Shown: positions 987 through 32,894, counted from the stretch's first letter. The stretch: 64,000 nt of DNA from a virus (IMGVR_UViG_3300013126_000031:205-64204); one strand, 5' to 3'. Numbers and translations: made by a program. The notes: a model not told the origin generated them from the sequence alone.

Positions 987-988
987 TG

Positions 989-1066
989 TACAGCGTGTAG
1001 GACTCGAACCTACGCCCCATCCACCAGTTAAAACCAGCAGTGCTCTACCAGCTGAGCTAACGCCAT
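989..1066 (-). tRNA. atypical/pseudo tRNA (Lys-like TTT loop, extended anticodon stem)
   Basis: ATGGCGT/ACGCTGT acceptor, canonical D and T arms; anticodon arm CTGCTGG-TTTTAA-CTGGTGG. Confidence 0.55.
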
Positions 1067-2374: not shown

Positions 2375-2554
2375 TTACTTTTTCAAATCTTCTCTTAAAT
2401 TTTTATTAGCTTTTGTGTGTGCTGGGTTGAAAGGGCAATGTCTACAACCGCTTCCGCAGCATATCCCTCTTTTTTTAAGATAATGTTCTGTGTATATAAT
2501 TTTACCTTTTTCCAAGTAATAATCAATACCTTCTTCAAAACTAAATTTTTCCAT
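2375..2554 (-). CDS. small Cys-rich protein (DUF5522-like)
   Basis: MEKFSFEEGIDYY...RGICCGSGCRHCPF; ATG just after tRNA-Ala. Confidence 0.7.
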   Translation of the reverse strand: MEKFSFEEGIDYYLEKGKIIYTEHYLKKRGICCGSGCRHCPFNPAHTKANKNLREDLKK

Positions 2555-2555
2555 G

Positions 2556-2629
2556 TGGAGTAGATGGGAAACGAACCCACCACAGATTGCTTGCAAAGCA
2601 GTCTCGCCAGCCTTGGTACATGCTACCCC
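2556..2629 (-). tRNA. tRNA-Ala(TGC)
   Basis: TT-TGC-AA loop; G3:U70 Ala identity pair. Confidence 0.85.
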
Positions 2630-2635
2630 AATTAG

Positions 2636-2707
2636 CGGTCCCGAAGGGAATCGAACCCTCATCTTCTGATAGACAGTCAGACATCGTAGCCATTGGACCA
2701 CGGGACC
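2636..2707 (-). tRNA. tRNA-Asp(GTC)
   Basis: TCTGA-CT-GTC-TA-TCAGA, G73. Confidence 0.92.
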
Positions 2708-2711
2708 AAAT

Positions 2712-2854
2712 AAAACATTAAGTTACACAATTTGTCCTACACCAAACTCAATACTTCGAACAAATCCCTTCAACTAACTAATCGTTTGGTTCTTTCGTTA
2801 GTCTCCCCTATTTAAGGGTTAGAAGCCTACCAGTCTTACCTCACTTAATGTTTT
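2712..2854. ncRNA. structured RNA candidate between tRNA-Glu and tRNA-Asp
   Basis: 12-bp terminal inverted repeat AAAACATTAAGT/ACTTAATGTTTT fills the spacer. Confidence 0.45.
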
Positions 2855-2855
2855 G

Positions 2856-2929
2856 TCACCCGTATGGGATTCGAACCCATGCTCTTCTCCGTGAAAGGGA
2901 GACGACTTAAACCGCTTGTCCAACGGGCG
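2856..2929 (-). tRNA. tRNA-Glu(TTC)
   Basis: TCTCC-CT-TTC-AC-GGAGA. Confidence 0.92.
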
Positions 2930-2935
2930 TTACTT

Positions 2936-3011
2936 TGGTGGGACGGGAGGGATTCGAACCCCCGACACTCGCATCTTCAGTGCGATGCTCTACCAACTGA
3001 GCTACCGTCCC
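2936..3011 (-). tRNA. tRNA-Phe(GAA)
   Basis: TCGCA-CT-GAA-GA-TGCGA, encoded CCA. Confidence 0.95.
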
Positions 3012-3072
3012 ATTTTGTTAATACAAATGTATGAACTATTTTTTAATTATCCAAATTATTTTGTATTTTTTT

Positions 3073-3714
3073 TTAATTAATTTCTTTTAACCATAAATTA
3101 TAAGGATAAAAAGCTTCCATATATTTTATATAACCACTTTCTTTATTTCTAATCTTACTTTCCCATGAGTTATACTTTATCGTATAATACCATAACTCTT
3201 GTCTAGTCCAATTTAATTTATTCTCCACATATTTTGCAACTTGATATCCAGTTCTATCAGCACCATGTGTGCAATGTATTAAAACATGTCCGTTTTGTAA
3301 TAGTGGTTGTATTTGATTTAATGATTCAACATAACCCTTTCCTTTTACATAACCTAAATGTGCATTAACCCAAACATATTTAACACCCATGCTTTCAACT
3401 AAGTGTTTTTCTTGCTCTGGTGATACGTTTGTAGTTTCTTTAGCATTCATTCTTATGACGGTTTTAATATCATACGTTTTCAAAATCGCTTCCATTTGTT
3501 TTAAAGATGGTTGCGAACTTCTAAAAACATAATTACCCCCAGGCACCGTATCAAAGTTTTTCGGTAAATTAGTTATCCTAACAAAATGATAAGTAGTATC
3601 TTTTATTTCCACTTTAACAACTTTGGTAGTATCAACCAATTCTACTTTTTTATCAACAGATTGACTAGAGCATGCTGTTGAAATCAATAACCCAATAAAA
3701 ATAAATTTCTTCAT
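3073..3714 (-). CDS. lipoprotein Cys-based tyrosine/dual-specificity phosphatase
   Basis: HCTHGADRTG (CX5R) motif, FRSSQP motif, lipobox LISTAC. Confidence 0.8.
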   Translation of the reverse strand: MKKFIFIGLLISTACSSQSVDKKVELVDTTKVVKVEIKDTTYHFVRITNLPKNFDTVPGGNYVFRSSQPSLKQMEAILKTYDIKTVIRMNAKETTNVSPEQEKHLVESMGVKYVWVNAHLGYVKGKGYVESLNQIQPLLQNGHVLIHCTHGADRTGYQVAKYVENKLNWTRQELWYYTIKYNSWESKIRNKESGYIKYMEAFYPYNLWLKEIN

Positions 3715-3795
3715 AATCTTAAATTGTTTATACAAATGTAATAACAATTTTTTAATTATCCAAATTTTTTAACTAATATTTCAAAGAACTTAAAT

Positions 3796-3825
3796 AAAAA
3801 AAGGTTGGCGTTTCGGCCAACCTTT
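3796..3825 (-). terminator. attenuator terminator 1
   Basis: AAAGGTTGGC-CGAAAC-GCCAACCTTT followed by U-tract. Confidence 0.85.
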
Positions 3826-3849
3826 AAATCAATATCGTTAAACAGTTTG

Positions 3850-3939
3850 TTAACTTTTGACATGAGTTGACCTTCCTAGGCTAAAATCGGCCTCGGCTGC
3901 AAAGAAATCAAACTCAAATATGTTATTAACTGTTTTCAT
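3850..3939 (-). CDS. leader peptide 1 MKTVNNIFEFDFFAAEADFSLGRSTHVKS (F/E/D/A sensing)
   Basis: 29-aa ORF between promoter and terminator; 12 consecutive F/E/D/A codons. Confidence 0.85.
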   Translation of the reverse strand: MKTVNNIFEFDFFAAEADFSLGRSTHVKS

Positions 3940-3988
3940 CGTTTTTATATTAAATATATTGTTTTTTCTAAAAATTCAATTTATACTA

Positions 3989-4019
3989 CAAATGTACAAC
4001 ATTATTTTTAATTTGTCAA
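3989..4019 (-). promoter_or_regulatory. promoter of attenuator cassette 1
   Basis: TTGACA-N17-TACATTTG, conserved at 5985-6015 and 26160-26190. Confidence 0.75.
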
Positions 4020-4998: not shown

Positions 4999-5072
4999 AT
5001 TATAAATATTAGTGTTAAAACAAATGTAAGAATAATGTTTTAAATATCCAAATAAAAGACATTTTTTTTTTG

Positions 5073-5146
5073 TATCTTCGGTGAGATTCGAACTCACACT
5101 GTATAGGGTCTAAGCCTATTGCCTCTGCCAGTTGGGCTACGAAGAC
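5073..5146 (-). tRNA. tRNA-Leu(TAG), short variable arm
   Basis: ATAGG-CT-TAG-AC-CCTAT. Confidence 0.88.
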
Positions 5147-5149
5147 ATT

Positions 5150-5237
5150 TGGTAGGGCGAGAGGGAGTCGAACCCTCACGGGACTAAGCCCAAGGGATTT
5201 TAAGTCCCTCATGTACTACCAATTTCATCACCGCCCC
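5150..5237 (-). tRNA. tRNA-Leu(TAA)
   Basis: AGGGA-CT-TAA-AA-TCCCT, long variable arm, CCA. Confidence 0.93.
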
Positions 5238-5261
5238 ATATTATAATATCAAAGAACTTTG

Positions 5262-5334
5262 TAGGGGTAGAGGGATTCGAACCCCCGACCTATTGCATGT
5301 AAGGCAATTGCTGCTACCGCTGAGCTATACCCCT
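5262..5334 (-). tRNA. tRNA-Val(TAC)
   Basis: ATTGC-CT-TAC-AT-GCAAT. Confidence 0.92.
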
Positions 5335-5724
5335 ATTTTTTATCATTAATCATTTTACTCGCACAGCACTCATATATTTCTGCTATGTTTTTCTTTCTTG
5401 GATTTGTGCCTGGTACGTCTAGTTCATCTAGCAACCCACTATCAATCCATTTCTGAATTATTTCTTCACGTCTTTTTTTTCATATGTACAATATTTTCAG
5501 ATATTGTATGACCTAAATTTTCCATGTTCTTATTTTTACTTTCTTTTAGTCTTTAACAACTTTCTTATTATTTTACCCCAATCAAAGTTATTTTTAACTT
5601 CGTTTACTTTTGGTCTAAGGTATTTTCTAGACCCTTCCATTTTGCCAGTGATAACTGTCCTAGTTACCATTTTTTCTTTGTTTGTTTCCATACTCTTTTT
5701 TTACTTTTAACATTATTATTTTTG

Positions 5725-5798
5725 AGCACCGAGTAGGATTCGAACCTACGAATAACGGTTTTGCAGACCGCCCCCTTAAACCACTTGAGCATCGGTGC
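5725..5798 (-). tRNA. tRNA-Cys(GCA)
   Basis: GCGGT-CT-GCA-AA-ACCGT, U73. Confidence 0.92.
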
Positions 5799-5805
5799 AT
5801 AAATT

Positions 5806-5835
5806 AAAAAAGGCCCATCGTTTCTGATGAGCCTT
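5806..5835 (-). terminator. attenuator terminator 2
   Basis: AAGGCTCATC-AGAAAC-GATGGGCCTT + U-tract, just upstream of tRNA-Cys. Confidence 0.85.
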
Positions 5836-5861
5836 CATATGTAGTTATAATTAGTTAAACT

Positions 5862-5936
5862 TTAACATACGTAGCCCACCTTGTCTACCACTAGTAAACA
5901 TAACAATAAGGCAATTTGTGTGTATAAAGTTTTCAT
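5862..5936 (-). CDS. leader peptide 2 MKTLYTQIALLLCLLVVDKVGYVC (L/C/V sensing)
   Basis: 24-aa ORF between promoter and terminator; run TTA TTG TTA TGT TTA CTA GTG GTA. Confidence 0.85.
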   Translation of the reverse strand: MKTLYTQIALLLCLLVVDKVGYVC

Positions 5937-5984
5937 AGTTTTTGCTTTTTATAATTAAATATATCTATTTCTTTAAATGTTATA

Positions 5985-6015
5985 CAAATGTACAACATTT
6001 TTTTTGATTTGTCAA
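5985..6015 (-). promoter_or_regulatory. promoter of attenuator cassette 2
   Basis: TTGACA-N17-TACATTTG. Confidence 0.75.
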
Positions 6016-7170: not shown

Positions 7171-7495
7171 AGGTTTTGTTTATCTACTATTAGTTATTAA
7201 TGATAATGGGTGTGAAAACTATAAAATAGGTGTGACTAAACGTAATATCGATAAACGAATTAGTGAATTACAGACTGGTAATGATTCTAAAATTCAACTT
7301 CTTAAACATTATCAATCTGAAAACTATCTAAAAGTTGAGAAATGGTTACATAGGAAATATAATTCATTTAAAACAGAATCAAATAACGAATGGTTTGCTT
7401 TGCTACCAGAACATGTTATTTCATTTCTTAAAGATTGTAAGGAAGCTGACGATAATATCAACTTCCTACTTGAAAACAATCCTTTTTATAAATGA
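7163..7495 (+). CDS. GIY-YIG nuclease (T5orf172/MUG113-like)
   Basis: GFVY...YKIGVTK...RISELQTGN...EWF. Confidence 0.85.
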   Translation: MNKGFVYLLLVINDNGCENYKIGVTKRNIDKRISELQTGNDSKIQLLKHYQSENYLKVEKWLHRKYNSFKTESNNEWFALLPEHVISFLKDCKEADDNINFLLENNPFYK

Positions 7496-8679
7496 TAAAA
7501 ACTTTTTCTAATTTTAATCAATAAATCGTTAACTAAATCCTTATCAATACTGTTTGGTAAATCAGAGTTATCAAAGATTTCATCCATTCTTGTAATCTCT
7601 TCTTCAGCCATATCAATAAGATTATCTAAATCAACTTCACCACGTCTAATTGATAATAGTTCTTGCGCATCTAGTCTGCGTACAATGATACCTTTACCAG
7701 CACCAATTTCTTGTGCCATTCTGATAAGTCTCATACAATGCATCATGTTTTTACCATCAATCTTTTGACCATGCTCTTGTGTTTCAACATATCTGGTTTC
7801 ATTTCTATTCTCTAACCATTCTTGATACTCTTTGTAATCTTTACAATGCATTGAGTAACCGTCTTTGTTATAAATGATATTACAGATAGGTTTCTCACCT
7901 TTTGGGATACTGGATAGTCTTAATTGGTTAGATTCAGCCATGTTATCACCCTCACCACTCTTTATAAGTCCCTTATAACCAAAACCCATTGAATGACCAT
8001 CTTCTTTTCTCCATGCTATAGAAGCTTCCCTCATGTGTTCTGGGATTTTTTCGTTAAAGCAATTGTTAGCATCATAATCAAAATAAACAGCATATAAATC
8101 TTTAGCATTGGGTACATTTACAACACCACAAAACTTTTCATTATAGATTTTATTATCTGGTGATTCTTTATCCTCATTCCATACTTTCCATGGAATACTC
8201 TTCTCACCTTTAATAACATAAACAAAATCTAAGACATCTTTACGTGTTACTTTATCACGTTCCCAGTTTTGTTTCTTGTTCAGTCCTTTTGCTTTTTTGA
8301 TTTGCTGCACAGCATAACCACCAAATGAGTTTTTACAAATCTTCGTAATAAACTTATCTTTTTGTTCCAATATCAAATCAAACATTGGGTGTTTGGTTAC
8401 AATACAATCCTCTGGAGAGTTAAGCAACTCTAATACAGTAGGGTTGTTAGATGCCATAAGTTCTAAAAAACGTCTGATTTCCCAACCAACATAATCTTTA
8501 TTTACGTTAAGTTGTTCAATGTAACCAGTACCCAAGATATAATCTTCTGGTAGGATATAAACAAATTTCTTGTCAATATCACTTGTTGGTGTTTGAGTAC
8601 CATAGGCTTGTGAACCTACGATAGTTTCAAACAAAATAAGACCATTCTTTTCTAAGTATTCGTGTGTAATCTTTTCCAT
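7486..8679 (-). CDS. nucleotidyltransferase (YcgL/RlaP-like)
   Basis: GSQAYGT..PTSDID, NPTVLELL, KNMMHCMRL, LLSIRRG. Confidence 0.85.
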   Translation of the reverse strand: MEKITHEYLEKNGLILFETIVGSQAYGTQTPTSDIDKKFVYILPEDYILGTGYIEQLNVNKDYVGWEIRRFLELMASNNPTVLELLNSPEDCIVTKHPMFDLILEQKDKFITKICKNSFGGYAVQQIKKAKGLNKKQNWERDKVTRKDVLDFVYVIKGEKSIPWKVWNEDKESPDNKIYNEKFCGVVNVPNAKDLYAVYFDYDANNCFNEKIPEHMREASIAWRKEDGHSMGFGYKGLIKSGEGDNMAESNQLRLSSIPKGEKPICNIIYNKDGYSMHCKDYKEYQEWLENRNETRYVETQEHGQKIDGKNMMHCMRLIRMAQEIGAGKGIIVRRLDAQELLSIRRGEVDLDNLIDMAEEEITRMDEIFDNSDLPNSIDKDLVNDLLIKIRKSFYHL

Positions 8680-23518: not shown

Positions 23519-23524
23519 ATATTG

Positions 23525-23597
23525 TACACCTATAGGGATTCGAACCCCAACGAATTGCTTAGAAGGTAATTATGCTATCCAGTTACATCATAAGTGC
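23525..23597 (-). tRNA. tRNA-Arg(TCT)
   Basis: ATTAC-CT-TCT-AA-GCAAT. Confidence 0.88.
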
Positions 23598-23606
23598 ATA
23601 TTTTAG

Positions 23607-23679
23607 TAGTTCCCACGAGATTCGAACTCGTACTACAACTTTCGTAGAGTTGGGTGCTAATCCGTTACACCAAGGAACT
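23607..23679 (-). tRNA. tRNA-Arg(ACG)
   Basis: CAACT-CT-ACG-AA-AGTTG. Confidence 0.9.
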
Positions 23680-23701
23680 AAATGTACAAAAAAAGTCAAG
23701 G

Positions 23702-23771
23702 TACCGACCATGAGGTTCGAACTCACTTAATCATCCATATGAGGGACGACCCTTTTCCACTAAGTGTCGGC
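23702..23771 (-). tRNA. tRNA(CAT), probably Ile2; compact D-arm
   Basis: CGTCC-CT-CAT-AT-GGATG; T-arm GTGAG-TTCGAAC-CTCAT. Confidence 0.7.
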
Positions 23772-23779
23772 ATAAAAAT

Positions 23780-23866
23780 AAATGTCGCCAGTTCCTCATG
23801 TCTAGCAATTATGTCTAGACTGTCCTATTGTTTCTGCGTTCTCAATTTCAAACGTTTGGGACATTT
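23780..23866. ncRNA. small structured spacer RNA candidate
   Basis: AAATGTCGCCA...TGGGACATTT inverted ends, internal GTCTAG/CTAGAC hairpin. Confidence 0.35.
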
Positions 23867-23872
23867 ATTTTG

Positions 23873-23974
23873 CTCTTCGGGGGAATTTCGAAATCCCGAC
23901 CTATCGGTTAACACTCCTTGTATGAACTTACTTATCATACCTAGCCGATTGCTCTACCTCTGAGCTACCGAAGA
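23873..23974 (-). tRNA. tRNA-Asn(GTT) with 30-nt insertion/intron at position 33/34
   Basis: ATCGG-CT-[23913-23942]-GTT-AA-CCGAT; rest of cloverleaf intact. Confidence 0.85.
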
Positions 23975-23981
23975 ATAATTA

Positions 23982-24323
23982 TTATAATTTAATTAAACCA
24001 TCATGAACTTCTCTATGACAATTTGAACATAACATGATACATTTATCTAGTTCTGTTTTAACTTTTTCCCAAGACCTAGTATAACCTTTATGCGATATAC
24101 CAAAATCTTTTTCATTAGGATTCAAATGATGAAATTCTAAAGCTCCATTACATCTATCATAACCACAAACTTGACATTTACCACCTTTGTATTCAATAGC
24201 CATTTCTTTTACTTTATCTCGCCTTCTTTGAACAGCATCTACAGCACATTTTTTACATCTATGACCACCATCTTGTCTTAAAACATATTCTGTGAGCCCA
24301 TGTATTTTACATTCTTTTTCCAT
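23982..24323 (-). CDS. HNH endonuclease
   Basis: CQVCG...LEFHH...LCSNCHREVH. Confidence 0.88.
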   Translation of the reverse strand: MEKECKIHGLTEYVLRQDGGHRCKKCAVDAVQRRRDKVKEMAIEYKGGKCQVCGYDRCNGALEFHHLNPNEKDFGISHKGYTRSWEKVKTELDKCIMLCSNCHREVHDGLIKL

Positions 24324-24382
24324 ATATCTTTTATTATAAATATACGGATTAACAAAATAATGTAAACCGTTAATTAAATTTG

Positions 24383-24455
24383 CGGACTACCTTGGATTCG
24401 AACCAAGACCATCGATATTAACAGTATCGAGCACTACCAGTTATGCTAATAGTCC
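24383..24455 (-). tRNA. tRNA-Asn(GTT)
   Basis: CGATA-CT-GTT-AA-TATCG. Confidence 0.9.
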
Positions 24456-24465
24456 ATAATTTTTG

Positions 24466-24537
24466 TTGTCTAACCCAGACTCGAACTGGAAATACTGCCG
24501 TATCAGAGCAGCGTGATAACCATTTCACCATTAGACA
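24466..24537 (-). tRNA. tRNA-Ile(GAT)
   Basis: CTGCT-CT-GAT-AC-GGCAG. Confidence 0.88.
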
Positions 24538-24548
24538 AGATTGTGGAA

Positions 24549-24737
24549 TTACTTCCACTGTGTTTTTCGGTAGTGTTTCCAAGTTTTGTACATTCTAACT
24601 TGATAACTCATTTTATTTCCATAAAACGTAATACCTTCATCCCAATAAATTGGATATAAATCATTGATTAACATGATTCGGTATTGTCTACCATTTTGTG
24701 CTTTGTTCAGTTTTGCTCTGTTAATGTTTACGCTCAT
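24549..24737 (-). CDS. small basic hypothetical protein
   Basis: MSVNINRAKL...TWKHYRKTQWK. Confidence 0.6.
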   Translation of the reverse strand: MSVNINRAKLNKAQNGRQYRIMLINDLYPIYWDEGITFYGNKMSYQVRMYKTWKHYRKTQWK

Positions 24738-24806
24738 AATGTTGTGAGTCTGTGAATAGCAGACCTTACAACATATCAAATTTCTTTTTCATAGTTTTAA
24801 AATTTG

Positions 24807-24893
24807 CGGAAGAGGAGAGATTCGAACTCTCGGAGCCCTTTCGAGCTCGCTGGTTTTCAAGACCAGTGCCATAAACCACTCGGCCACCCTTCC
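24807..24893 (-). tRNA. tRNA-Ser(TGA)
   Basis: CTGGT-CT-TGA-AA-ACCAG, long variable arm, G73. Confidence 0.95.
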
Positions 24894-24904
24894 AGTTTAT
24901 TTAG

Positions 24905-24975
24905 CACAACTATACAGATTCGAACTGTAAACGCTGGTTTTGGAGACCAGAATGATACCATTTCACCATAGTTGT
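24905..24975 (-). tRNA. tRNA-Trp(CCA)
   Basis: CTGGT-CT-CCA-AA-ACCAG. Confidence 0.9.
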
Positions 24976-25022
24976 GTATTTATTAATAACCAATATGTCA
25001 AAGAACATTTTAAGTTCAAAAG

Positions 25023-25095
25023 GGTGATTAACCAGAATCGAACTGGTATCAATAGAATCACAATCTATCATGTTAACCGTTACACCATAACCACC
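25023..25095 (-). tRNA. tRNA-His(GTG)
   Basis: ATAGA-TT-GTG-AT-TCTAT, G-1:C73. Confidence 0.92.
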
Positions 25096-25097
25096 AT

Positions 25098-25676
25098 TTA
25101 TTTATTCTTACCAGCGTATGTTTCAGTCTGTGAATGACAATTAGGGCACATAAAACGTAAATTTTCTATTCTATTATCATTATTTATGCCGTTAATATGG
25201 TCTATTTGTAATATTAACTTACTACCCATCCATTCACCAATATTACCACAACTTACACATTTATACTCTAATAAATTACTTCTTAATACTCTATTCTTCA
25301 AATGACCAGAATTATATTGTGAATTCTCACAAAATATTTCAGAATCACTATATTTTACCTTAGTAACGTTTCTTCTAGGGTTACCTTTATATAAATCATT
25401 ATCTATTTCATATAAATCAAAATACCTTTTTAACGTTCTATAATTTCCAGCTTTTAATGTTAAACCCATTTTTTCTAACACTTCAGCTTTAGAGGTTGAA
25501 GAATCTATCAACGGTTTTAACTCTTCAAAACTCCATTTATGATAATATTTTTTAGGTTTAACATCATATTTATTCGCCCAATATCTTATAGTTGTTAGTG
25601 ATTTATTAGTTCTTTTACTTATTTCTCTTAAAGATAAACCTTCTTTAAGAAGCTTTTCTAAATCTATTTTTTCCAT
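25098..25676 (-). mobile_element. HTH-HNH homing endonuclease
   Basis: N-terminal HTH; CVSCG...IDHING...NLRFMCPNCH. Confidence 0.88.
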
Positions 25677-25733: not shown

Positions 25734-25768
25734 AATCTAGCACTCTAACCAACTGAGCTAACACCACC
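25734..25768 (-). pseudogene. 5' half of a tRNA-His-like gene
   Basis: G-GTGGTGT-TAGCTCAGTTGGTTAGAGTG-CTAGATT, breaks at the anticodon loop. Confidence 0.65.
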
Positions 25769-25942
25769 ATCTATTGTAACAAATATAAGAATGTTACCTT
25801 TTTCTTTTTTAAATCTTAGGTCACCGTTGTAACCCATGTTTATTGCTTTTTGTTTATACTCGTCAACAATGTTGTCAAAGTTTTCTTTGAACTTAGTTGC
25901 TTTGACTTTTCCGAGTGGTCTTACTAATTCTTCTTTACTCAT
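25745..25942 (-). CDS. hypothetical protein
   Basis: 65-aa ORF directly after terminator 3. Confidence 0.55.
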   Translation of the reverse strand: MSKEELVRPLGKVKATKFKENFDNIVDEYKQKAINMGYNGDLRFKKEKGNILIFVTIDGGVSSVG

Positions 25943-25953
25943 AGCATTAAAAT

Positions 25954-25988
25954 AAAAAAGCCTTAGATTTTTTGGTCTAAGGCTTTTT
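25954..25988 (-). terminator. attenuator terminator 3
   Basis: AAAAAGCCTTAGA-loop-TCTAAGGCTTTTTT. Confidence 0.88.
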
Positions 25989-26011
25989 AAATTTATCTTT
26001 AAAATGTTTTA

Positions 26012-26107
26012 TCACTTTGCGATGTCATTTAACATACCTTGACCAGTATGGATGCTATTGCGTCTCCAATTACTAATCGAAATCATATGTATGTTAATTG
26101 TTCTCAT
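26012..26107 (-). CDS. leader peptide 3 MRTINIHMISISNWRRNSIHTGQGMLNDIAK (I/N/H/S/W/R sensing)
   Basis: 31-aa ORF between promoter and terminator; codons 4-20 are all I/N/H/M/S/W/R. Confidence 0.88.
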   Translation of the reverse strand: MRTINIHMISISNWRRNSIHTGQGMLNDIAK

Positions 26108-26159
26108 TGTTTTTTATATTAAATATGTTATTCTTTTAAAAAGTTTTAATTTTATAGTA

Positions 26160-26190
26160 CAAATGTACAAACTATTTTTATATTTGTCAA
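26160..26190 (-). promoter_or_regulatory. promoter of attenuator cassette 3
   Basis: TTGACA-N17-TACATTTG. Confidence 0.75.
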
Positions 26191-26209
26191 GTTTTTTTTA
26201 AATTATTTT

Positions 26210-32273: not shown

Positions 32274-32345
32274 TAGCGGAAGATGGACTCGAACCACCGA
32301 CCTCAAGGTTATGAGCCTTGCGAGCTTCCTCTGCTCTATTCCGCA
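32274..32345 (-). tRNA. tRNA-fMet(CAT)
   Basis: CAAGG-CT-CAT-AA-CCTTG, T1-T72 mismatch. Confidence 0.9.
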
Positions 32346-32435
32346 ATGTTGTATCCTAGGTTGGCAGTGAGCCAACTATTAAATAGTTGCTTGGCACCCA
32401 TTTAATAAGGACAATTCCTCTAGAATAAGTTTGGC

Positions 32436-32499
32436 CAGAATCTTCTTTTTTACTTTTGTTTTCTGAATAATAGTATAAATAAATTGCTGAATAGATTCT
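32436..32499 (-). ncRNA. CWGCAA-stem RNA copy C (minimal)
   Basis: AGAATCT-ATTCAGCAA...AGATTCT-G. Confidence 0.6.
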
Positions 32500-32519
32500 T
32501 TCTGCCAATAAGTTTATCT

Positions 32520-32779
32520 CAAGATGGTTTTCTTAATATTTTTCATCCCAGCGGATTAACCCTTTTTACGTCTTCGGCTTAGCTTTGGCGAGAGTCTACT
32601 GTTCTTCAACTACATCCTACTCGCACCTATTGGGGTGGTTGTGACGTGATTTTTGTTTTAGTTGGAAACCTAACCAATTTTGTTTAATTCCGTTGTTAAA
32701 GCATGTTTTCACATTTCTAACATACCAATTAAACGAATCATAGTTGTATCTGTTTTTGTTTGGTTGCAGAACCCATCTT
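32520..32779 (-). ncRNA. CWGCAA-stem RNA copy D (long)
   Basis: AAGATGG-GTTCTGCAA...~240 nt...CCATCTT-G. Confidence 0.6.
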
Positions 32780-32894
32780 TTTTAGATAATATTTTTAATA
32801 AGTTAAAGAACGTTGTTTTTAATTATATTACAAATGTACAAATAAATATCTCGTTTGTCAAGTAAAAACCAAAATATTTTTAAAAAAAAATAAA

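Follow-up and report, generated by a model that had tools for sequence, protein, structure and literature searches.

Positions 4019–3796, on the minus strand of a 64,000-nt stretch of viral DNA (the window), probably hold a ribosome-mediated attenuator that senses decoding by its operon's own tRNAs, a reading proposed from sequence and predicted folds to which we give a rough probability of 75%. Judged by its sequence, this element (attenuator 1) is a member of a family of paralogous cassettes heading the tRNA operons of very large uncultured phages. The window is an IMG/VR virus record of 64,204 bases less 204 bases, with a CheckV completeness of 18%. The observed basis consists of the parts of the cassette, their conservation, the match between leader codons and downstream anticodons, covariation between the tail of the leader ORF and the terminator, and the lack of other promoters for two of the paralogous tRNA clusters (B and D). 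From these we infer translation of the leader ORF, control of the fold by ribosome position and the direction of the response.

Parts of the proposed attenuator 1

Read along the minus strand, 4019–3796 contains a promoter-like site, a 29-codon ORF, a 24-nt spacer and a hairpin with a T-run. The features are:

3987–4019, minus strand: predicted promoter of the leader transcript, a −35-like hexamer followed by an 8-mer −7 box (pattern and promoter scan)
3949–3957, minus strand: conserved, AT-rich 9-nt 5'-leader motif, common to all three cassettes of the window
3850–3939, minus strand: leader ORF, 29 codons plus stop, conserved as an ORF in 15/15 related stretches
3883–3918, minus strand: putative regulatory run, codons 8–19, all Phe, Glu, Asp or Ala (ORF translation)
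3875–3896, minus strand: small conserved hairpin inside the ORF, its 5' arm in the last regulatory codons (RNAalifold and folds)
3865–3872, minus strand: predicted antiterminator segment in the ORF tail, pairing with the terminator 5' arm at 3822–3815
3796–3825, minus strand: predicted intrinsic terminator, 10-bp stem at 3825–3800, 6-nt loop, T-run to 3796 (scan)

The promoter-like site at 4019–3991 received the top promoter score of the region. The 33-nt promoter pattern of 4019–3987 has one other copy, at 5983–6015 (two matches versus 0 expected), and the 8-mer −7 box is typical of the promoters of this record, occurring 25 times versus 6.5 expected, with 23 of the 25 copies on the minus strand. 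We take the promoter type of these phages to be Bacteroidota-like; this type, together with A-rich start regions that have no Shine-Dalgarno sequence, suggests that the host is probably a member of the Bacteroidota. A scan of IMG/VR with a 17-mer promoter pattern was also tried, and the 37 stretches that it returned were set aside, their number being compatible with chance. The 9-nt leader motif lies at 3949–3957, 5954–5962 and 26118–26126 in the window cassettes and is carried by the relatives too; it is not enriched across the window (nine matches versus 6.65 expected). This AT-rich motif was seen in every cassette, at a variable distance from the promoter box and the start codon, and may be a second promoter, a processing site or an initiation enhancer.

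The original prediction had described codons 8–19 of the ORF as an unbroken series of Phe, Glu, Asp and Ala codons, and translation of the ORF confirmed it. Among the 315 ATG-started ORFs of 20–60 aa in the window the run of 12 is unique, the next longest being 4, and the background frequency of the four residues in the long ORFs of the window is 0.236. A short leader (29 codons) with 12 consecutive putative regulatory codons is what would be expected of an attenuator, and the predicted hairpin at 3825–3800 with its T-run lies between this ORF and the tRNA genes. The 5' arm of the terminator, 3822–3815, also serves as the partner of the antiterminator: the proposed 8-base pairing of 3872–3865 with 3822–3815 was found both in the MFE and in the centroid structure of a transcript cut before the terminator 3' arm.

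The tRNA genes that the leader would serve form a cluster on the same strand:

2556–3011, minus strand: tRNA cluster A (Phe, Glu, spacer, Asp, Ala-like element)
2936–3011, minus strand: tRNA-Phe(GAA) (ARAGORN, Rfam)
2855–2929, minus strand: tRNA-Glu(TTC) (ARAGORN, Rfam)
2708–2854, minus strand: structured spacer of 147 nt between tRNA-Glu and tRNA-Asp (fold)
2635–2707, minus strand: tRNA-Asp(GTC) (ARAGORN, Rfam)
2556–2630, minus strand: tRNA-like element with a TGC anticodon (sub-threshold)

Of the four tRNAs named at the outset, Phe(GAA), Glu(TTC) and Asp(GTC) were thus found by both programs, and Ala(TGC) was not, its place being taken by a sub-threshold tRNA-like element. This element received no ARAGORN call and matched the tRNA-Sec model of Rfam (25.6 bits, E 0.006) rather than the tRNA model; reading of the sequence reveals an apparent G3:U70 pair. 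A regular tRNA-Ala(TGC) occupies the corresponding place in relatives (13/16 loci). The spacer at 2708–2854 has a terminal stem of ~12 pairs (MFE −32.8 kcal/mol, z −1.8), is also present between tRNA-Glu and tRNA-Asp in the relative L040, and matched no Rfam family at E<=1; it is possibly a new small RNA or an intron-like remnant. A gene for a small DUF5522 protein (2375–2554, minus strand; Pfam E 1e-17) starts at most 2 bases past the 3' end of the Ala-like element.

Conservation of the leader and of its tRNAs

A 216-aa protein encoded just upstream of cassette A has relatives at 63–75% identity in seven IMG/VR loci, and the four of these that are distinct and full-length keep cassette A. In these relatives the leaders are near-identical, and the terminator stems are wholly different yet still paired. 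A search with the leader-A pattern found 15 stretches besides the window. Leader A is followed by tRNA-Phe and tRNA-Glu in 16/16 loci, window included, with tRNA-Asp called in 14 and tRNA-Ala in 13; the missing calls are accounted for by the atypical element of the window and by two loci that end early. Alignment gaps in the type-A leader ORF are 3 and 6 nt long, except for one offsetting pair of 1-nt gaps (L044). Among cultured phages, the neighbouring 216-aa gene had no protein match, nor was any near DNA match found.

These data bear on the idea that the leader is an untranslated RNA that binds tRNAs directly, in the manner of a T-box. Its position ahead of tRNA genes would suit such a sensor, and nothing further speaks for it. 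A cmscan of window positions 1–40000 at Rfam gathering thresholds returned only tRNA and tmRNA, with no leader family and no T-box (RF00230); the start codon, the in-frame stop and the in-frame character of the indels are conserved; and each run comprises 12–20 codons rather than one specifier. We therefore regard a T-box-like sensor as extremely improbable compared with a translated leader.

Two public sequencing runs (shares 0.07 and 0.05) were available as contigs only. One contig, of 176 nt, covers exactly 3796–3971; another, of 809 nt and from an RNA library, belongs to a relative that has no phosphatase-like gene (see below) and links the leader and terminator to tRNA-Phe. Contigs do not show RNA ends, and both may derive from DNA, so neither was counted as evidence.

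A family of cassettes at the head of phage tRNA operons

All 20 tRNA and tmRNA genes of the window are on the minus strand, and two further cassettes head tRNA clusters there:

5806–6015, minus strand: cassette B, promoter 6015–5983, terminator 5836–5809
5862–5936, minus strand: leader B ORF, 24 codons, rich in Leu, Cys and Val codons (ORF translation)
5072–5798, minus strand: tRNA cluster B, Cys(GCA), Val(TAC), Leu(TAA) and Leu(TAG) (tRNA calls)
25954–26192, minus strand: cassette C, promoter ~26192–26160, terminator 25985–25958, T-run to 25954
26012–26107, minus strand: leader C ORF, 31 codons, with a run of Ile, His, Met, Ser, Asn, Trp and Arg codons (ORF translation)
23524–25094, minus strand: tRNA cluster C, His, Trp, Ser(TGA), Ile(GAT), Asn, Arg(ACG) and Arg(TCT) (tRNA calls)

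Cassettes A, B and C have in common the promoter, the 9-nt 5'-leader motif and a similar leader N-terminus. The T-run of cassette B is 7 nt from tRNA-Cys. Between cassette C and its cluster are a small ORF, a tRNA fragment and an HNH gene; the fragment (25745–25790, minus strand) resembles the 5' half of a tRNA and is followed by the HNH endonuclease gene at 25098–25676 (Pfam HNH, E 3e-5). Homing-type genes, HNH or other, are also inserted 3' of attenuator A in G001 and L047. Between tRNA-Asn and tRNA-Arg of cluster C, at 23700–24000 (minus strand), we noticed tRNA-like halves with long inserts, called by neither ARAGORN nor Rfam, which may be intron-containing or split tRNA genes.

Cassette B is also present in the relatives L040–L043; L044 ends too near its tRNA-Cys to show it. 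When five related records were searched for the 5' motif together with the start, nine matches came up in three records, versus 0 in the reversed control, and a fourth cassette type, D, was found. Codons for Thr, Tyr, Gln, Pro, Lys and Gly abound in its leader, and the tRNAs that follow it are those for Pro, Gln, Tyr, Thr, Gly and Lys. A search of the window for type D found none in this record, which is 18% complete. In the 362-kb genome G001, rated 100% complete, all four cassette types are present; 38 of its 45 tRNAs lie inside the four cassette-headed clusters, and the amino-acid sets of these sum to all 20.

For a wider census we used an unbiased scan for a terminator with a short ORF ending <=110 nt upstream and tRNAs downstream, and sorted the matches by leader motif. 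This gave 48 unique cassettes (14 A, 10 B, 12 C and 12 D), in which the presence of a terminator in 48/48 is by construction of the scan. In all 48 the distance from stop codon to hairpin is 20–29 nt. As the cassettes form homologous families, the truly independent observations, counting the second lineage described below, amount to about seven types in two lineages rather than 48.

Leader codons match the tRNAs of the same operon

Within the window, we asked what fraction of leader codons 2–23 can be read by each tRNA cluster. For cassette A it was 0.50 with its own cluster versus 0.05–0.18 with the other clusters, for cassette B 0.50 versus 0–0.05, and for cassette C 0.64 versus 0.05–0.14. 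Conversely, the ARAGORN-called anticodons find a cognate codon in their own leader in 4/4 cases for cluster B and 7/7 for cluster C. The same comparison across the family was made on the 45 cassettes with at least three anticodons downstream. There, the fraction of cluster anticodons with a cognate leader codon was 0.97 for the own leader versus 0.45 for leaders of other types, and the fraction of leader codons 2–23 readable by the cluster was 0.56 versus 0.10. In G001 the leaders cover 25/25 anticodons of their own four clusters, among them Ser(GCT), the two isoacceptors each of Arg and Gly and all four of Leu. When leaders were permuted among clusters, the own assignment ranked 1/24 in G001 and 1/6 in the window. 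The regulatory codons are thus cognate to what the operon supplies, the supply being tRNA rather than amino acid.

Other measures of the match gave a weaker signal. Substitutions within the amino-acid set were significantly favoured in type A (5 in, 3 out; P=0.02) and type D (P=0.044) and not in types B or C, and this test is weak overall, with 28 in-set variants versus 18.9 expected. Binomial enrichment over the whole peptide was likewise weak for type A (P=0.047 in G001, and 0.14 in the window with the ARAGORN tRNA list). The leader A of the window has a His codon in its tail, yet cluster A has no tRNA-His, and the relatives that do have tRNA-His in cluster A have a leader without a His codon.

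A second lineage with a different tRNA grouping

In a distant DNA search of deposited phage genomes, only LR745206.1 matched apart from chance-level matches. This is an uncultured 635-kb phage in which the architecture of leader ORF plus terminator stands in front of three tRNA clusters. Its tRNAs are grouped differently from those of the window phages, and its three leaders track its own grouping: in-set residues make up 16/30 of the leader ahead of the His/Phe/Trp/Lys/Arg/Ser cluster, 29/37 ahead of the Asn/Arg/Leu/Val/Ile/Thr/Met cluster and 9/30 ahead of the Pro/Asp/Gln cluster. The own assignment again ranked first among the possible ones (1/6). We consider this re-grouping the strongest argument for a functional tie between leader text and operon content that goes beyond joint inheritance. 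One further tRNA cluster of LR745206.1 has the 5' motif and neither leader ORF nor terminator. Related 5' motifs were observed at its loci L109 and L111–L113, among them the one ahead of this leaderless cluster.

The ORF tail covaries with the terminator

An RNAalifold analysis of a MAFFT alignment of the 14 type-A cassettes gave a single consensus helix, the in-ORF hairpin 3896–3875, which has 5 pairs, 1 of them with a compensatory change. The terminators do not line up in this alignment, which is why it gave no other helix, and covariation was therefore assessed by a swap test, in which the last 48 nt of each ORF were paired with the 5' arm of every terminator. Tails paired with their own terminator arm at a mean of −13.4 kcal/mol, compared with −8.0 kcal/mol for arms of other cassettes sharing no 6-mer (n=1596) and −7.6 kcal/mol for shuffled tails (permutation p<=1e-4). 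The own arm was the best partner in 24/45 cassettes; the exceptions include three type-A relatives with a weak antiterminator (rank 21–27 of 36). The three LR745206.1 cassettes behaved similarly, with −9.2, −15.6 and −10.6 kcal/mol for the own arm against non-cognate means of −6.1, −8.2 and −7.3. Both the swap test and the MFE structure of the truncated transcript point to a tail that would compete for the 5' arm of the terminator.

Together, the conserved cassette, the paralogues with matching codon runs, the regrouped megaphage leaders and the covariation of tail and arm support the original reading of 4019–3796 as a leader-peptide attenuator. They also bear on a simpler account, in which the short ORFs would be nothing more than genes for small proteins, or small RNAs, each with its own promoter and terminator; the composition match would be non-regulatory, and the tRNAs would be expressed through leaky read-through. 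Leader B is indeed hydrophobic and resembles a small membrane peptide, and elsewhere in this AT-rich window a few small ORFs have runs of the B and C sets of similar length. Such an account would leave unexplained that each of the seven cassette types, across both lineages, matches only its own cluster, that the right codons are present for both Arg, Ser and Gly isoacceptors and for up to four Leu isoacceptors, and that tails covary with terminators, and we consider it very improbable.

Folding with ribosome footprints

The original prediction held that a ribosome stalled upstream would free the antiterminator. We modelled this on truncated transcripts of the 48 cassettes, cut before the terminator 3' arm and with the ribosome footprint masked. 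The predicted probability of pairing between 5' arm and ORF was 0.69 in the naked RNA, 0.72 with the footprint at the first codon of the run, 0.75 at mid-run, 0.25 at the last codon of the run and 0.48 at the stop codon. Types C and D kept the antiterminator mostly free with a ribosome at the stop codon (0.64 and 0.57). For cassette A of the window the value was 0.70, versus 0.81 with the footprint at the stop codon; here, the stop-codon ribosome gives rise to an alternative pairing further upstream, in which the last part of the run engages the terminator arm (0.81), such that the OFF state would need something beyond masking alone. No 1:2 anti-antiterminator hairpin was found, as the 5-pair hairpin 3896–3875 leaves the antiterminator uncovered; in these folds it is a possible pause or anti-antiterminator element.

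In full-length equilibrium folds with masked footprints, the terminator was retained in nearly every state (mean probability 0.63–0.97), and few cassettes switched. Pairing in the truncated RNAs varied with ribosome position (0.25–0.75), with no drop at the stop codon for the window copy, and the full-length RNAs showed no switch. These folds rule against a thermodynamic switch, and a switch would have to be kinetic, which is beyond what folding can show.

The same results invite the suggestion that the leaders do sense the listed codons but act through something other than competition of hairpins, with the tail pairing being secondary; a stalled ribosome might, for instance, act on factor-dependent termination or on how the precursor is processed or how stable it is. 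Such an output would agree with equilibrium folds that hold the terminator in nearly all simulated states, and with the antiterminator still predicted under a stop-codon ribosome in types C and D and in the type A of the window. It would not account for tails that covary with the terminator 5' arm in 45 cassettes and in the second lineage, nor for a stop-to-hairpin spacing fixed at 20–29 nt. In addition, the terminators of classical attenuators are likewise more stable than their antiterminators. For these reasons an output of this kind seems to us rather improbable.

Our preferred model, terminator–antiterminator competition, would work as follows. A short transcript would be made from the promoter and a ribosome would translate the leader of ~30 codons, the middle of which would be a codon list for the tRNAs encoded downstream. 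With quick decoding, the ribosome would cover the ORF tail while the polymerase makes the terminator; the tail would be unable to pair, the terminator hairpin would form, and transcription would end ahead of the tRNA genes. If any listed tRNA were scarce or uncharged, the ribosome would lag within the run and leave the tail free to capture the emerging 5' arm of the terminator, whereupon the polymerase would continue into the tRNA genes. The outcome would be a closed feedback loop on phage tRNA supply, one operon at a time. For an untranslated leader the model predicts read-through, unlike the trp paradigm.

Dependence of the tRNA clusters on read-through

A −7 promoter box lies 35–89 nt ahead of the start codon in all 48 leaders. 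Between T-run and first tRNA we found no −7 box in 10/10 type-B cassettes (4–54 nt), in 12/12 type-D cassettes (14–102 nt) and in three type-A cassettes (9–14 nt). The lack of boxes after these terminators indicates that clusters B and D, and the tRNAs behind the three type-A cassettes, can be reached by read-through only. Type C has a conserved small ORF of ~57 aa between T-run and tRNAs, and 9/14 type-A cassettes, that of the window included, have promoter boxes between terminator and tRNAs. In the window, this stretch measures 784 nt from the terminator to tRNA-Phe and holds two promoter-like sites and a gene:

3733–3763, minus strand: second promoter-like site, 3' of the terminator, −7 box at 3733–3740
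3073–3714, minus strand: 213-aa phosphatase-like gene with weak Pfam matches to tyrosine/dual-specificity phosphatases
3022–3053, minus strand: third promoter-like site, immediately 5' of tRNA-Phe, −7 box at 3024–3031

The site at 3733–3763 has a near-identical copy in front of tRNA-Phe. The 213-aa protein scored 24.4 bits with Y_phosphatase3 (cut-off 22.2) and 27.7 bits with DSPc, which is under the cut-off of 33.5. Its gene is absent from the corresponding place in most relatives and missing in L040–L044, and the RNA-library contig skips 3791–3078 and is thus without it. The later insertions (two promoter-like sites and the phosphatase-like gene) probably add attenuator-independent transcription of the tRNAs in the window, and its type-A attenuator would then probably add to tRNA transcription rather than be the sole control.

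Taken further, this would make attenuator 1 a bypassed relic, which still terminates its own transcript and has little effect on tRNA levels, tRNA-Phe, Glu and Asp being made mainly from the two later promoters. The 784 nt between T-run and tRNA-Phe, with three promoter boxes and the 213-aa gene, and the occurrence of such boxes in 9/14 type-A cassettes would be consistent with this. The window copy of type A has several weaker points, namely the extra promoters, the intervening gene, the atypical Ala tRNA and the second possible pairing. On the other hand, the cassette is intact, with ORF, terminator and pairing kept in 16/16 loci, and the direct arrangement of attenuator and tRNAs is kept in three relatives. 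Furthermore, a terminator scan found no minus-strand terminator-like site between 3796 and tRNA-Phe, so that read-through transcripts would still reach the tRNAs. We therefore think a relic unlikely.

Comparison with known leaders

Leader-peptide attenuators of enterobacterial amino-acid operons include trpL, hisL and pheL. The phage cassettes share with these attenuators a short leader ORF, a run of regulatory codons, an intrinsic terminator ahead of the regulated genes and an alternative pairing via the terminator 5' arm. They also share the use of several amino acids per leader: according to two reports, ilvL (Ile/Leu/Val) and thrL (Thr/Ile) are multivalent leader-peptide attenuators of enterobacterial amino-acid operons (PMC1183508, PMC3082878). 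The differences are several. The phage cassettes would regulate tRNA genes instead of biosynthetic enzymes, so that the product sensed is the product made; their leaders list 3–7 amino acids and cover almost all of the operon's anticodons; the predicted antiterminator lies inside the ORF, 5' of the stop; there is no clear 1:2 anti-antiterminator, and the naked RNA is predicted to read through; and they occur in phages, with starts that are not of the Shine-Dalgarno type.

The pheM leader of the E. coli pheST operon, which encodes phenylalanyl-tRNA synthetase, is another case of leader-peptide attenuation. Like the phage cassettes, it controls a component of the translation apparatus and not a biosynthetic pathway; it differs in controlling a synthetase gene and in sensing one amino acid. 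To our knowledge, control of the pheM type is not known for tRNA genes, which are generally thought to be promoter-controlled and not attenuated. With T-boxes the cassettes would have in common that the state of a particular tRNA gates read-through of a terminator; a T-box does so by direct binding of uncharged tRNA, independently of translation, whereas the phage element is an ORF of many codons. A full-text literature search, judged from titles and abstract openings and with subscription journals and supplements outside its scope, found no leader-peptide control of phage or other tRNA operons.

On balance, we lean towards the broader view that these giant phages run their whole imported decoding set in a closed loop, in which a leader polls each tRNA of its operon, isoacceptors included. 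If so, replacement tRNAs would be switched on exactly as the cell pool for the listed codons fails, and the grouping of tRNA operons would co-evolve with leader text. One may speculate that the pool fails through loss of host tRNAs or through tRNA-cleaving defences during infection. This bears on why phages carry tRNAs and on how their expression is timed. A loop of this kind would be a direct, sequence-readable feedback from decoding to tRNA synthesis and a testable model for the takeover of translation by huge phages. It would also provide a rule for finding sensors in other genomes, namely a leader that lists the tRNAs of its operon, and compact natural parts with which to monitor how available chosen tRNAs are.

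Other RNA-related genes

Several further observations were made in the window and its relatives. At 32345–32838 (minus strand) two tRNAs with CAT anticodons come after a promoter box, a 12-codon ORF and ~400 nt that are GC-richer and appear not to code for protein; this stretch is without the cassette architecture. A phage tmRNA (34376–34732, minus strand; Rfam 65 bits) encodes an unusual 20-residue tag and has a promoter box and a 45-codon ORF in front. Near the tRNA region, 7486–8679 (minus strand) encodes a 397-aa protein of the RlaP family of RNA-repair-associated nucleotidyltransferases (Pfam E 4e-24). Lastly, ARAGORN called a tRNA with a 4-base anticodon (8-nt loop) at 988–1066 (minus strand) and, in the relatives L048 and L073, tRNAs whose anticodons are the complements of the stop codons TAA and TAG. 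They may be frameshift and suppressor tRNAs, which would hint at recoding in this phage group.
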